Below, in pieces: positions 15,335 through 18,189 of a stretch of DNA of 24,000 bases (position 1 is its first letter; the number at the start of each line of letters is the position of its first letter). The stretch comes from Exiguobacterium aurantiacum (lineage in GTDB: Bacteria > Bacillota > Bacilli > Exiguobacteriales > Exiguobacteriaceae): NCBI RefSeq assembly GCF_024362205.1, contig NZ_CP101463.1:35318-59317 (forward strand), written 5' to 3'. Made by a program: the position numbers and the translations under genes. The notes below the pieces were generated by a model. The model searched no databases. It saw nothing but the letters and a program-made list of their open reading frames with translations, and was not told the DNA's origin.

Positions 15335-15460
15335 TCAGTTCACATTTGCATTTTTCCTTTTTTTAGAAACGAAATAACCAAACATAAATATCAGTATAGA
15401 CCCGATTCCTAAATATACATAAAACAAAGCATCTATCGGCAAGTTAAAGAAATTATCCAC
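15335..15460 (-). pseudogene. Proximal part of the small membrane-protein gene split by IS3 copy 1 (reads into the IS end)
   Basis: AAGGGG SD lies 7 nt before GTG at 15460. The TM-like sequence is ALFYVYLGIGSILIFMFGYFV followed by KKRK. The present stop (15335-15337) lies inside the IS right IR. Confidence 0.4.
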
Positions 15461-15526
15461 TTGTATGCCCCTTGCATGAAGACTATTTTAAAATACTTAC
15501 TTAGTTGGGTGAATAGGATCAATTTT

Positions 15527-15637
15527 TTCAGGAAAGTGATTTTGTGACCCATTACTTACACTACCTTTTGTATCTATACTTGGTGAAAAACTGAAAACTG
15601 TCATGATTGTCATGATAATCAATATTTTTTTTACCAT
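15527..15637 (-). CDS. Putative secreted signalling pro-peptide (36 aa) cognate to the adjacent HTH-TPR regulator
   Basis: ATG overlaps the regulator stop (ATGGTAA), with GGAG 8 nt upstream. The product is MVKKILIIMTIMTVFSFSPSIDTKGSVSNGSQKSLS: a Lys-Lys n-region, a hydrophobic core and a polar tail. It is too short for the supplied ORF track. Confidence 0.6.
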
Positions 15638-16905
15638 CTGATCATCTCCATAGATTCTTCATTTTGGTGAAACGCTACTAATAATTTCTGATATTTAGAA
15701 TGATTTTTATTTTTATAGTAATCTAAGAGTTCCAAATATCTTTTTCTTATTTCAATATAAGAGTTTTCTTTTTCGATTAATCTTAAGTAATTAGTTTCAA
15801 GTAACCGATAGTATTCTTTCTCATTTTTTTTACTCTTTAGAATCATTAAATCGGCATAAACCAAATATTTCTTATGAAGCTTACACTTTGACGCACTATT
15901 CTTGAAAGATGATGTAAATTCTAAAATCTCTTCTTCCTGAAGATCGTTTAAATGGAGCTTGGTTTCCCACATGGCAAGAATCAAAAGACATTGATGTTCT
16001 TCTTTAGTTGAAAAATATTGCTCGCAACTCTTAAACACTTCAAATGCCTCGTCATATCGTTTTGCATTTTTCAAGAAGATACCATAGTTATATCGCGTCT
16101 CGTGTAACATATTTTCATTACGGAACTTTGATAGCATACGCAACAACTCAATATACTCTTTTTCTGCTTCTTTCATTAAACCCAATCTTGAGTAATTAAT
16201 GGCCATAACCGACTTACAAGTTATCATTCTGGTAAAATTCGTCCCTTTACCAAAAGATTCATATGCTTTGTTCATATGGATTAAAGAAAGTGACGGACTA
16301 ATGTTATAGCTGTAAATGAGACCTTTCTGGTAAAAGAATTCAGCCTTATCGTCACTCACTATTAGATCTTCATTTGATTCAGCATATTCTGCAGCCTTTT
16401 TAGAATCTTTATACTTATTCAGGAAAGACATTTTTAATATGACAAATTTACTCATGTCGGTATTGGACATCACCTCTAAATTATCAAGTGTGTATAAGAG
16501 AGATTCAGCCTTTTCATGGTTTTTTTCGTTTAATTCATTGGCCAATTGAGCCAATAGGTATTGATTCAAATAATCACTGACTATGTAATGTGACTCCTCC
16601 TTTTCCATCATTTCAAAAGTCGATTTCATTTGACTAACTTCACTGTAAGACCAATGGTAATAAAAGTCATCAATAAGTTTTACTAGTCTTTGATGCTGAT
16701 CTTTCTCAAAATCAATTTTTTTCCCAAGTCTTTCGAGAAGCAGATGTAATGTCTCTTGATTAGGAAGGTACACACCTTTTTCGATTTTGCTTAAATGTGA
16801 GATAGAACATATCCCAGTTGCGACTTCGTGTTGGGTTTTCTTAGCTTTAATACGATTAAATCGGATGATATTCCCAATATATTTATACAATTTAATCTCC
16901 TCCAC
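15631..16905 (-). CDS. XRE-type HTH + TPR transcriptional regulator (RRNPP-like: NprR/PlcR/Rgg/AimR class)
   Basis: N-terminal HTH is KKTQHEVATGICSISHLSKIEKGVYLPNQETLHLLLERLG. The remaining ~350 aa are helical repeats with TPR-like signatures (e.g. YNYGIFLKNAKRYDEAFEVFKSC). The start is GTG 16905 or TTG 16890, which lies after GGAGGAG. Confidence 0.85.
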   Translation of the reverse strand: MEEIKLYKYIGNIIRFNRIKAKKTQHEVATGICSISHLSKIEKGVYLPNQETLHLLLERLGKKIDFEKDQHQRLVKLIDDFYYHWSYSEVSQMKSTFEMMEKEESHYIVSDYLNQYLLAQLANELNEKNHEKAESLLYTLDNLEVMSNTDMSKFVILKMSFLNKYKDSKKAAEYAESNEDLIVSDDKAEFFYQKGLIYSYNISPSLSLIHMNKAYESFGKGTNFTRMITCKSVMAINYSRLGLMKEAEKEYIELLRMLSKFRNENMLHETRYNYGIFLKNAKRYDEAFEVFKSCEQYFSTKEEHQCLLILAMWETKLHLNDLQEEEILEFTSSFKNSASKCKLHKKYLVYADLMILKSKKNEKEYYRLLETNYLRLIEKENSYIEIRKRYLELLDYYKNKNHSKYQKLLVAFHQNEESMEMIRW

Positions 16906-17058
16906 CTCATATTATCCCAAATTTCAAATGGTAAATAAATGCTATATTTTGAATAAGGCTTAGTTCAAAAGTCAAATTTTTAATGTGAAGGAGACAATGA
17001 ATTTTAGGATTTGTTATTTTCACCAGATTTTCATCAAAAAATATTGGAGGTTTTTTTA

Positions 17059-17580
17059 ATGTTTAAGTCAAAAACAATTAAAATCTTAGGTTCACTAGCT
17101 TTGAGCGCATCGATTTTATCAGGAGTGCCAACTTCAGTGTCAGCAGTAGAAAATGATGTTCCTATTTATGCACCAGTTTACGATGGAACGGTATATCAAT
17201 CGACACTCACTAATACATTAGTAAAGCTTCCTAAATGGACGCATATTGCTACAAACACATCGTCTCTTGTAGACACAGTAAACTATGAGGTTTCTCGTCG
17301 TGTATTTGCTACTGGAACTCTTACAGGTGAAACAGAATTTAAAATTTTGCAAAATGGCCTAAAAGTAACAGCCGAGGCTTCTTATGGGACGGATACCACC
17401 AAATCAACTAAATTCGCCTTTAATATTCCTCCAAAATCCACGCGGAAATTAGTTTATGGTAGCATCGGTGTCGATACCACAGGAAAATTAGTCACATACT
17501 CTAATGGTTTGATATCAAGATCAAAAGCTGTTTCTGCAGACTACACCCGTTACAGCTACTCTGAGAACCTTGCATACTGA
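17059..17580 (+). CDS. Secreted Ser/Thr/Tyr-rich beta-type protein of unknown family
   Basis: GGAGG lies 8 nt before ATG 17059. The signal peptide is MFKSKTIKILGSLALSASILSGVPTSVSA/VEND. The mature ~144 aa show alternating polar/hydrophobic patterns. The track's start at 17011 is rejected. Confidence 0.8.
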   Translation: MFKSKTIKILGSLALSASILSGVPTSVSAVENDVPIYAPVYDGTVYQSTLTNTLVKLPKWTHIATNTSSLVDTVNYEVSRRVFATGTLTGETEFKILQNGLKVTAEASYGTDTTKSTKFAFNIPPKSTRKLVYGSIGVDTTGKLVTYSNGLISRSKAVSADYTRYSYSENLAY

Positions 17581-17583
17581 TAT

Positions 17584-18189
17584 ATGAAAAAATATGTTGC
17601 TATATACGTTTTAGCGAGTGCTTTAGTATTGGCATCATGTAGCGAAAACGATTCATCAAAGAGTACTTCTTTGGGTAAAGAGATGTCTAACGAGAAAACT
17701 GAACAAACTACCCAGGATGTTTCAGGTACAAAACAGTATGTATCTATTAATGAATACATCGAAAGTATGGTAGCTCAACAATTTTCATTTATAAGTTTCG
17801 AAAAGGAAGTAGAAAACAATGAATTGATCACAACCGTAACGTTCTCAGTAGATAACATTCTAAGTCCAAAATTCACTTCTACTGAGCAGCAGTTTTACTG
17901 GAGTGTTCAACTTCCAACTTCTCTTTTCGAAAAGGTATCGGACGTACCTGAGCCGGTTATGTTTGTTCCTGTATCTGGGGAAGAGTTAACAGATAGTGAG
18001 CGAGAAAAATCTCGTTATGCTAACTTTTATCGGATGGAACAACGGTTTAAAGTCTCAGAAGAACACGTCGCGGAAGTAGAAGAGTTGATTCAAAAAAATG
18101 ACTCTGGATACGCATTTAAACTTCATGATGAAAATTATGAAGAAGCATTCGTATTTGTTGATTTGGAATCTTTTGTAAATATAGACTGA
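17584..18189 (+). CDS. Lipoprotein of unknown function, translationally coupled to the secreted protein
   Basis: It starts 4 nt after the upstream stop. The lipobox is VLASALVLAS-C in MKKYVAIYVLASALVLASCSEN, and the mature part is acidic. Confidence 0.8.
   Translation: MKKYVAIYVLASALVLASCSENDSSKSTSLGKEMSNEKTEQTTQDVSGTKQYVSINEYIESMVAQQFSFISFEKEVENNELITTVTFSVDNILSPKFTSTEQQFYWSVQLPTSLFEKVSDVPEPVMFVPVSGEELTDSEREKSRYANFYRMEQRFKVSEEHVAEVEELIQKNDSGYAFKLHDENYEEAFVFVDLESFVNID

Follow-up and report, generated by a model that had tools for sequence, protein, structure and literature searches.

A candidate NprR-type quorum-sensing unit head-to-head with an aerolysin-fold protein and lipoprotein cassette in Exiguobacterium

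A 24,000-nt stretch of Exiguobacterium aurantiacum DNA (contig NZ_CP101463.1, positions 35,318 to 59,317; called the window below, its first letter being position 1) contains a compact locus in which two sets of genes diverge from an intergenic region of 153 nt (16906..17058). On the minus strand lie the gene for a 424-aa regulator (15631..16905), with an XRE helix-turn-helix (HTH) domain at its N-terminus and a tetratricopeptide repeat (TPR)-like peptide-binding domain at its C-terminus, and a gene for a 46-aa propeptide (15497..15637). On the plus strand lie the genes for a secreted protein of 173 aa (17059..17580) and, starting 3 nt past its stop codon, for a lipoprotein of 201 aa (17584..18189). 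All of the open reading frames (ORFs) listed in a preliminary description of this DNA were present where it had placed them. The GC content of the locus is 33%, against 50–56% in the flanking insertion sequence (IS) and repeat DNA. All of its genes recur, conserved, on independent contigs, and they are therefore not chance ORFs. The block of four genes was found in the genomes of E. alkaliphilum 12_1 and Exiguobacterium strain AM39-5BH (with the regulator of the latter cut off by the end of its contig) and on several metagenomic contigs, and the DNA immediately downstream of it matches Exiguobacterium plasmids; searches of plasmids with the 173-aa protein and the lipoprotein gave no match. The best explanation of the whole, to which we assign a probability of about 0.55, is that two modules stand here head-to-head: an NprR-type quorum-sensing unit, and a pore-former/lipoprotein toxin cassette under its control.

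The regulator matched Pfam HTH_3 (E=7e-8), and its residues 190–411 matched the TPR domain of NprR in the Protein Data Bank (PDB; 4gpk, E=5.4e-6). Its match to Pfam TPR_12 was below threshold (E=0.009), and many of its homologues carry Pfam TPR matches. In all, 48 homologues were found, several of them carrying the JGI name NprR. By tblastn the regulator was 23% identical, over 98% of its length, to a Bacillus thuringiensis plasmid gene adjoining an annotated nprX, and a relative with 26% identity adjoins a subtilisin gene, as NprR adjoins nprA. The contacts made by NprR with an NprX-type peptide are Arg126, Tyr193, Asn194, Glu241, Ser274, Asn275, Asn306 and Asp309 (PMC3763537). When the residue numbering of NprR was fixed with the chain of the Y223A/F225A mutant, 5dbk, the invariant residues Y192 and N273 of the regulator aligned with contacts Y193 and N275. 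Of the other contacts, N194 aligns with Q and E241 with an invariant arginine, R240, while S274, N306 and D309 are not conserved; Arg126 falls outside the aligned region (regulator residues 190–411). The true start of the regulator is probably TTG at 16890, giving 419 aa, rather than GTG at 16905, because a Shine-Dalgarno (SD) sequence, GGAGGAG, precedes the TTG and the orthologue in L010 is called there. The L010 locus is related to that of the window and has been rearranged less; other loci compared with the window are likewise referred to by L numbers.

All five signature features of RRNPP systems defined by Bernard et al. (PMC10075063) were found in the regulator and propeptide pair. The receptor, at 424 or 419 aa, lies within the range of 250–500 aa, and the presence of a TPR domain was counted from the homology to the NprR TPR domain and from the Pfam TPR matches of the homologues. 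The propeptide and its orthologues, at 38–49 aa, lie within the range of 10–100 aa, and the receptor and propeptide genes are direct neighbours, overlapping by 7 nt in the window, 4 nt in L001 and 17 nt in L003. The program RRNPP_detector assigns a receptor to a known subfamily by a 30%/80% rule (PMC10075063). Our regulator falls below this rule, with 23% identity over 98% of its length and a PDB match that covers residues 190–411 only, and so lies outside the named NprR subfamily. Judged from these comparisons, the 424-aa protein belongs with the NprR-type RRNPP regulators as a distant member, homologous to NprR but outside the subfamily of that name.

The propeptide ORF overlaps the regulator stop codon by 7 nt (AGATGGTAA), is read as translationally coupled to the regulator gene and has its own SD sequence. 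Its product starts with MVKK, followed by a hydrophobic core of 13 residues and a polar region, and ends in ...EKIDPIHPTK; this is a Sec-type layout by inspection, and orthologues are built alike despite the divergence of their sequences. The core IDPIHPT is encoded at 15503–15523. In L010, L001, L002 and L003, the ORFs that occupy this position have the C-termini IDPIHPTK, HIDPIHPTTKKTK, HIDPIHPTKKVR and AIDPIHPDV, next to regulators that are 96%, 50%, 50% and 37% identical, respectively, to that of the window. Across the five loci IDPIHP is invariant; the next residue is T except in L003, and a short variable tail completes the propeptide, while the signal regions diverge. Conservation of this core beside regulators only 37–50% identical indicates that the 46-aa ORF is a real propeptide gene. 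Relatives of the regulator at 26–28% identity carry unrelated peptides, as would be expected of separate pherotypes. The mature signal is likely to be a short peptide around IDPIHPT. Reading of the regulator and its peptide as an NprR-like RRNPP module, put forward in the preliminary description, is thus upheld by the HTH_3 match, the homology to the NprR TPR domain, the match to the B. thuringiensis NprR gene and the conserved propeptide.

The first product of the divergent operon, the 173-aa protein, has a predicted signal cleavage site at about VSA|VEND, leaving a mature protein of approximately 144 aa. It gave no significant match to Pfam, NCBIfam, PADLOC or PHROGs, nor a sequence or profile match in the PDB. 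A word-indexed search returned only five close relatives, and a full HMMER scan with a profile of close relatives returned 89 cluster representatives, of which 41 had E-values under 1e-10. The members whose records were consulted belong to Listeria ivanovii, L. seeligeri, Ureibacillus, Virgibacillus, Brevibacillus, Bacillus and Niallia, and are named hypothetical protein, except for a Ureibacillus UniRef entry called "Carbohydrate binding protein". An AlphaFold model built from six close homologues was unusable, with a predicted local distance difference test score (pLDDT) of 44. With an alignment of 66 sequences, the pLDDT was 86.9 overall and above 95 for residues 41–173. In this model strands run over residues 43–66, 72–86, 112–123, 127–148 and 151–172, and a loop of residues 87–111 lies between strands 2 and 3. 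When the model was compared with the PDB using Foldseek, nearly all matches were to aerolysin-fold proteins, with probabilities near 1. They included parasporin-2, the lamprey protein LIP, Cry23Aa1, Clostridium perfringens enterotoxin, the Bacteroides protein 3kog, HA70 and Dln1, together with epsilon toxin, Cry51, lysenin, LSL and BmALP1. There were also weak matches of the sequence profile to C. perfringens enterotoxin and CEL-III in their hairpin regions (E approximately 2–4).

An insertion loop of alternating polar and non-polar residues is the best-preserved feature of the aerolysin domain according to Szczesny et al. (PMC3110756). Such an amphipathic loop is found at residues 84–110 of the 173-aa protein (nt 17308–17388, plus strand), where hydrophobicity varies with a period of two. 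Averaged over the family, the period-2 pattern extends over positions 84–96 and 101–109, and serine- and threonine-rich flanks lie at 73–81 and 112–120. A strand core with an insertion loop, alternation within that loop and likeness to solved members, by which an aerolysin domain is recognised, were all found in the 173-aa protein. On the evidence of the model, the structural matches and the hairpin pattern, this protein is predicted to have an aerolysin-type pore-former fold, a positive outcome of the search of predicted structures for such folds that the preliminary description had proposed. The mature protein of about 144 aa would then be essentially a bare pore module with no separate receptor-binding domain. 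In one relative, P0118, the module is fused to surface-binding Listeria-Bacteroides repeats.

The lipoprotein encoded directly downstream has a lipobox, L-A-S-C19. It gave no match to Pfam, PADLOC or the PDB, and in NCBIfam matched signal and lipobox models only; against PHROGs there were only weak matches of its N-terminal signal and lipobox part to families without known function. To follow the pair outside the Exiguobacterium element, six contexts were inspected: L008, whose protein is 79% identical, L009 (61%), Listeria ivanovii (34%), Virgibacillus, Brevibacillus and Ureibacillus. In all six, a lipoprotein of 188–203 aa with a lipobox directly follows the homologue of the 173-aa protein, and in L. 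ivanovii the gap between the genes is 3 nt, as in the window. The partner lipoproteins are homologous to one another, that of the window matching that of Listeria over the full length with E=3e-7. As the lipoprotein gene follows the pore-former gene in every context checked, the pair is a conserved two-gene cassette. It had been described as an orphan pair, which does not hold in view of the approximately 89 cluster-representative relatives of the 173-aa protein and the conservation of the lipoprotein alongside it; the membrane-anchored partner that had been suggested is confirmed as a conserved cognate lipoprotein, present in every neighbourhood inspected.

No RRNPP regulator lies beside the cassette in any of these six contexts, and we take it to be a module that moves independently. 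The L008 copy has a 69-nt direct repeat on either side (545–613 and 2715–2783; 87% identical) that duplicates the 3′ end of the neighbouring clpB-like gene; this points to the site-specific insertion of a module about 2.1 kb long without a recombinase of its own. The Brevibacillus cassette stands among transposase genes. In L. ivanovii the cassette (L019/L020, 5001–6140) lies just after an rlmH-like SPOUT methyltransferase gene, and its neighbour is AbiH in one strain, whereas in another it is a type I restriction-modification system; this spot is thus variable and resembles a defence island.

Evidence for a link between the two modules comes from the intergenic region and from the comparison of related loci. 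On the regulator strand of the window, a box, AATATAGCATTTATT (16934–16948), is followed after 12 nt by TTTGGGATAAT (16911–16921), an extended −10-like element. When the intergenic regions of the window, L010, L001, L002 and L003 were aligned, the block of AATATAGCAYTTAWT, 12 nt and TTTGGGATAAT was the only conserved part. In ten fetched loci of the subfamily (L001–L007, L017, L018 and L024), the regulator has exactly one copy of this composite pattern upstream of it; L010 differs from it at one box base and was not matched. Within the window the box has a single exact copy, and no further copy with fewer than two mismatches was found there. The second part of the block resembles an extended −10 element for the regulator. 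Its first part shares sequence with the −35 region and stands directly beside a TTGAAT hexamer that points towards the cargo, so that one site could serve both directions.

Three variants of the subfamily each have a divergent operon for Sec-exported proteins that starts 115–155 nt upstream of the regulator. In the present Exiguobacterium element the cargo is the pore former and lipoprotein. In L001 and L002 it comprises a secreted protein of 170 aa, a C92 (NlpC/P60-like) amidase that is also secreted, and a membrane-anchored protein of 340 aa. In L003 (1014–4092; also L004), where the regulator is 37% identical and the peptide has the same IDPIHP core, it comprises three paralogous secreted proteins of 100 aa ending in ...SFDL, followed by a DUF5819 protein and an HTTM/DCC1 protein, a layout that recalls the maturation genes of the SdpABC cannibalism toxin. 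The cargo at these sister loci, with its secreted C92 amidase and Sdp-like maturation genes, looks antagonistic. The first cargo protein of L001 and L002, 170 aa long, was considered as a member of the same family as the 173-aa protein and rejected, as only the signal peptides align.

The upstream DNA of the window cassette shares nothing with that of the regulator-less copies L008 and L009, which suggests that the cassette has acquired a new control region. DNA-binding RRNPP receptors in general regulate adjacent genes (PMC10075063). From the arrangement and conservation of these sequences, we think it probable that the regulator controls the divergent cassette. The proposal of the preliminary description that the divergent pair is the regulon of the regulator is therefore borne out in part: secreted cargo is divergent from the regulator in all three variants, but homologues of the regulator outside the Exiguobacterium element carry other cargo. 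Apart from the near-identical Exiguobacterium copies, these homologues are not syntenic with the pair. That description had named an absence of such synteny as a result that would count against it, and this is partly what was seen; the result fits modular exchange of cargo equally well. The synteny survey is small, as the metagenome scan for relatives of the regulator yielded six loci only.

A short ORF of 20 codons (MNFRICYFHQIFIKKYWRFF; 16997..17059, plus strand) with a strong SD sequence (GAAGGAGA) precedes the 173-aa gene, and its stop codon overlaps the ATG of that gene. In L010, through a difference of 1 nt, it is continuous in frame with the downstream gene, and the resulting ORF has 194 aa. 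It could be a leader peptide or meaningless.

The quorum-sensing unit appears to include a third gene, which is interrupted in the window. Its intact orthologues in L010 (840–1148), L001 (7443–7751) and L002 (3561–3869) encode a protein of 102 aa with three transmembrane segments that matches no family. Since this gene travels with the regulator and peptide genes whatever the cargo, we assign it, on the basis of synteny, to the quorum-sensing module. In the window, a 5′ fragment (15343..15460, minus strand) retains 39 native codons up to a homology breakpoint at 15342/15343, and a 3′ fragment (12016..12211, minus strand) lies on the far side of a nested IS3-family insertion (12212..15342, plus strand) that ends in TGAACTG...CAGTTCA and is flanked by a target duplication of CATT. 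Window 11660–12213 is collinear with L010 484–1037 up to the end of the IS, with 94% column identity over the whole alignment. The insertion consists of an outer IS3 copy interrupted by an inner one (13583–15268) with inverted repeats of 35 nt. Pairs of IS3 orfA and orfB genes are found at 12258–13585 and 13652–15222, and the outer orfB frame resumes past the inner element as ...SPV|EYRTQVLKVA. The 41-aa ORF at 15335–15460 runs two codons into the IS before its stop, starts 36 nt past the propeptide stop codon and encodes one hydrophobic span. What had been described as a small multi-transmembrane ORF 66 nt beyond the propeptide is thus an IS-truncated 5′ stump with a single span, 36 nt away. 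The island is AT-rich and full of IS elements, as the same description held; the IS elements, from which it took the locus to be probably mobile, are later insertions into the locus and not necessarily what carried it.

From these components a pathway can be proposed. The propeptide would be exported and trimmed, and its product would accumulate with cell density and then be re-imported. A peptide around IDPIHPT would bind in the TPR-domain groove of the regulator, which would then bind the AATATAGCAYTTAWT box in the shared 153-nt region and activate both its own operon and the divergent cassette. The secreted 173-aa protein would oligomerise on a target membrane, and its hairpin (residues 84–110) would insert as a beta-barrel pore. 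By analogy, the lipoprotein on the outer face of the producer membrane would act as an immunity factor and protect the producing cell.

Several observations weigh against this proposal, and some of them would be better accommodated if the juxtaposition of the two modules were incidental, the regulator acting only on its own operon or on distant genes and the cassette being an independent mobile insertion with its own promoter. The association with pore-former cargo is confined to one Exiguobacterium element, and in most lineages, including the six contexts above, the cassette lives without such a regulator and must therefore be expressible on its own elsewhere. Its copy in L008 is bounded by a direct repeat, like a self-contained insertion, and IS elements have heavily rearranged the region around the window locus. 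The position of the conserved box is closer to the regulator's own −10 element. When a palindromic operator was sought in the intergenic regions, no clear one was found in the window box, and a scan for consensus promoters gave no more sites than in shuffled sequence and detected no terminator. The third gene of the quorum-sensing unit is broken here, and this copy of the switch may be defective should signalling depend on that gene. Nevertheless, the arrangement of four genes with its 153-nt spacer is kept in those Exiguobacterium genomes and metagenomic contigs that cover that side, a divergent secreted-protein operon accompanies 3/3 regulator variants, and the native upstream DNA of the cassette has been replaced. 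With the general tendency of DNA-binding RRNPP receptors to regulate their neighbours (PMC10075063), these points make an incidental juxtaposition, in our judgement, unlikely, and favour control of the cassette by the quorum-sensing unit.

The nature of the cassette itself also has to be weighed. The 173-aa protein might be non-lytic, a surface or matrix protein or an adhesin that is held or assembled by the lipoprotein, with no toxin involved. Neither it nor its relatives match the Pfam aerolysin or ETX/MTX2 families (tested at E up to 1 for the 173-aa protein and up to 0.1 for 66 relatives). The Foldseek TM-scores are low (0.25–0.41), and the best E-value is only 7.7e-4. Part of the shortfall in TM-score comes from the disordered signal peptide, which makes up a quarter of the query, and from the long, twisted shape of the fold. 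Matches include aerolysin-fold proteins not known as pore formers, namely botulinum HA70/HA3 and the non-toxic B. thuringiensis crystal protein 2d42. A non-lytic role would also suit the lack of a separate receptor-binding domain, and the known hosts or targets suggest no pathogenicity of Exiguobacterium. We nonetheless regard it as the least probable of the alternatives, because the period-2 loop with serine- and threonine-rich flanks between strands 2 and 3 is kept throughout the family and is a hallmark of a membrane-inserting hairpin (PMC3110756), because most of the structural matches, including the best, are active toxins, and because the cargo at sister loci looks antagonistic. A different role for the lipoprotein is somewhat less improbable, albeit still unlikely: it could be a functional partner of the pore former, such as a component of a binary toxin, a released receptor-binding or targeting subunit, or a chaperone or activator for secretion or oligomerisation. 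Immunity is proposed from analogy and gene order. The pore module is too small to have a binding domain of its own, the strict 1:1 coupling of the genes, whose 3-nt gap is the same in Exiguobacterium and Listeria, suits a stoichiometric partner, and the structural matches include Cry23Aa1, which needs the binary partner Cry37Aa1. On the other hand, a lipid anchor keeps the protein with the producer, which suits protection better than delivery, and its sequence has no likeness to lectins or known binding domains. If the cassette does encode a pore former and its immunity protein, its target comes into question. Because the cargo at sister loci looks antagonistic and the partner is anchored in the membrane, an interbacterial weapon is an attractive reading: a minimal aerolysin-fold, bacteriocin-like killer of Gram-positive competitors with lipoprotein immunity, mobile across Bacilli and captured by an RRNPP switch of IDPIHPT pherotype that swaps antagonistic cargo. 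We put this forward tentatively, as a possibility of low probability; a toxin directed at eukaryotes is an alternative.

The window as a whole is largely mobile DNA. It contains three consecutive istA/istB pairs of the IS21 family (433–2432, 2718–5059 and 5104–7262) and an IS30-type transposase (21607–22542). No RNA family from Rfam was found anywhere in it. A bcrABC cassette for efflux of quaternary ammonium compounds (benzalkonium) lies at 9313–11366, with ORFs at 9499–9843, 9861–10178 and 10190–10789, and is 96.5% identical to the cassette of many Listeria monocytogenes plasmids; the DNA around it here appears to be from Exiguobacterium. A GC-rich (56%) repeat of about 300 nt, whose window copy has a 37-nt insert, lies at 18282–18590, shortly past the lipoprotein gene. 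The repeat occurs twice in L010 (3987–4290 and 9978–10145) and in at least five Exiguobacterium plasmids, some with several copies, with weaker partial matches in four more; it has no match in Rfam. Comparison of window 18190–18681 with L010 3879–7150 showed that the window is without an M28/M20-type peptidase gene and a gene for a 309-aa TPR protein, which in L010 stand between the lipoprotein gene and an HTH_17 (excisionase-like) gene. Further along the window is a second divergent pair, made up of a lipoprotein gene (19474–20055, minus strand; 193 aa, lipobox LVGC) and a gene for a signal-peptide protein (20241–20954, plus strand; 237 aa, with a beta-rich C-terminal half). Neither product matches any family, and the pair was rejected as a paralogous cassette because both proteins are unrelated to the families of the pore former and the cassette lipoprotein.

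That RRNPP systems can control secreted toxins is already known, and aerolysin-fold proteins are known to be widespread. In the literature we found no description of RRNPP systems in Exiguobacterium, of RRNPP systems with aerolysin, or of aerolysin-like proteins with lipoprotein immunity. The regulator and its relatives represent an RRNPP subfamily with a new and unusually conserved signal core, IDPIHP, and an additional membrane-protein gene. Wiring of one quorum-sensing switch to three secreted, apparently antagonistic sets of cargo would provide a natural example of modular regulon swapping. The effector is predicted to have the aerolysin fold, belongs to no described sequence family and is unusually small; members of its family are about the smallest aerolysin-fold proteins known to us. 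Such bare pore modules should be useful for defining the minimum requirement for beta-barrel pore formation, and for finding out what replaces the receptor-binding domain. A lipoprotein partner without known relatives outside these cassettes may be an immunity factor of a new kind, acting against protein pore formers, or else a new binary component. Since the island also carries a bcrABC cassette shared with Listeria plasmids, the DNA on which the locus travels appears to be exchanged between Bacilli of the food chain and of the environment. Should the interbacterial reading be true, this would be the first aerolysin-type toxin-immunity pair in bacterial competition under peptide quorum sensing of which we are aware. 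The value of the locus lies in a newly defined and testable pore-former/lipoprotein family, together with a switch that exchanges its cargo.

Among known systems, the quorum-sensing unit most resembles NprR-NprX of the Bacillus cereus group. The two share a receptor of about 420 aa with HTH and TPR domains, a propeptide gene immediately downstream on the same strand, a Sec-type propeptide with the active core near but not at the C-terminus, an adjoining gene for a secreted protein as presumed target, and conservation of contacts Y193 and N275. They differ in that identity is only about 23%, the core IDPIHPT is unrelated to SKPDIVG and contact E241 is replaced by an invariant arginine; the window system also has an additional conserved three-transmembrane gene, and its presumed target is divergent and not a protease. 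In PlcR-PapR of B. cereus, the RRNPP regulator, loaded with its re-imported peptide, acts through a conserved box to activate its own operon and the genes for secreted membrane-damaging proteins, among them the beta-barrel toxin CytK. The proposal made here is similar, with secreted membrane-damaging cargo under an RRNPP regulator and a conserved box. PlcR, however, governs a dispersed regulon through a defined palindrome, and CytK belongs to the haemolysin family and does not have the aerolysin fold, whereas the window has one non-palindromic conserved block beside a single cassette. With the aerolysin and ETX/MTX2 toxins, such as parasporin-2, C. perfringens enterotoxin, epsilon toxin, 3kog and lysenin, the 173-aa protein shares a predicted elongated core of five strands and presumably the state of a secreted soluble monomer. 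Unlike them, it has a mature product of only about 144 aa with no receptor-binding or cap domain and no sequence match at the level of Pfam, and it is paired with a lipoprotein gene in every context checked. LanI proteins such as NisI are lipid-anchored immunity lipoproteins of Gram-positive bacteriocin loci, located on the outer face of the producer membrane. Here too a lipid-anchored protein is encoded beside a secreted and, as predicted, membrane-active agent; the two kinds of lipoprotein have no sequence relationship, and the partner in the present cassette would be a protein pore former rather than a lantibiotic.

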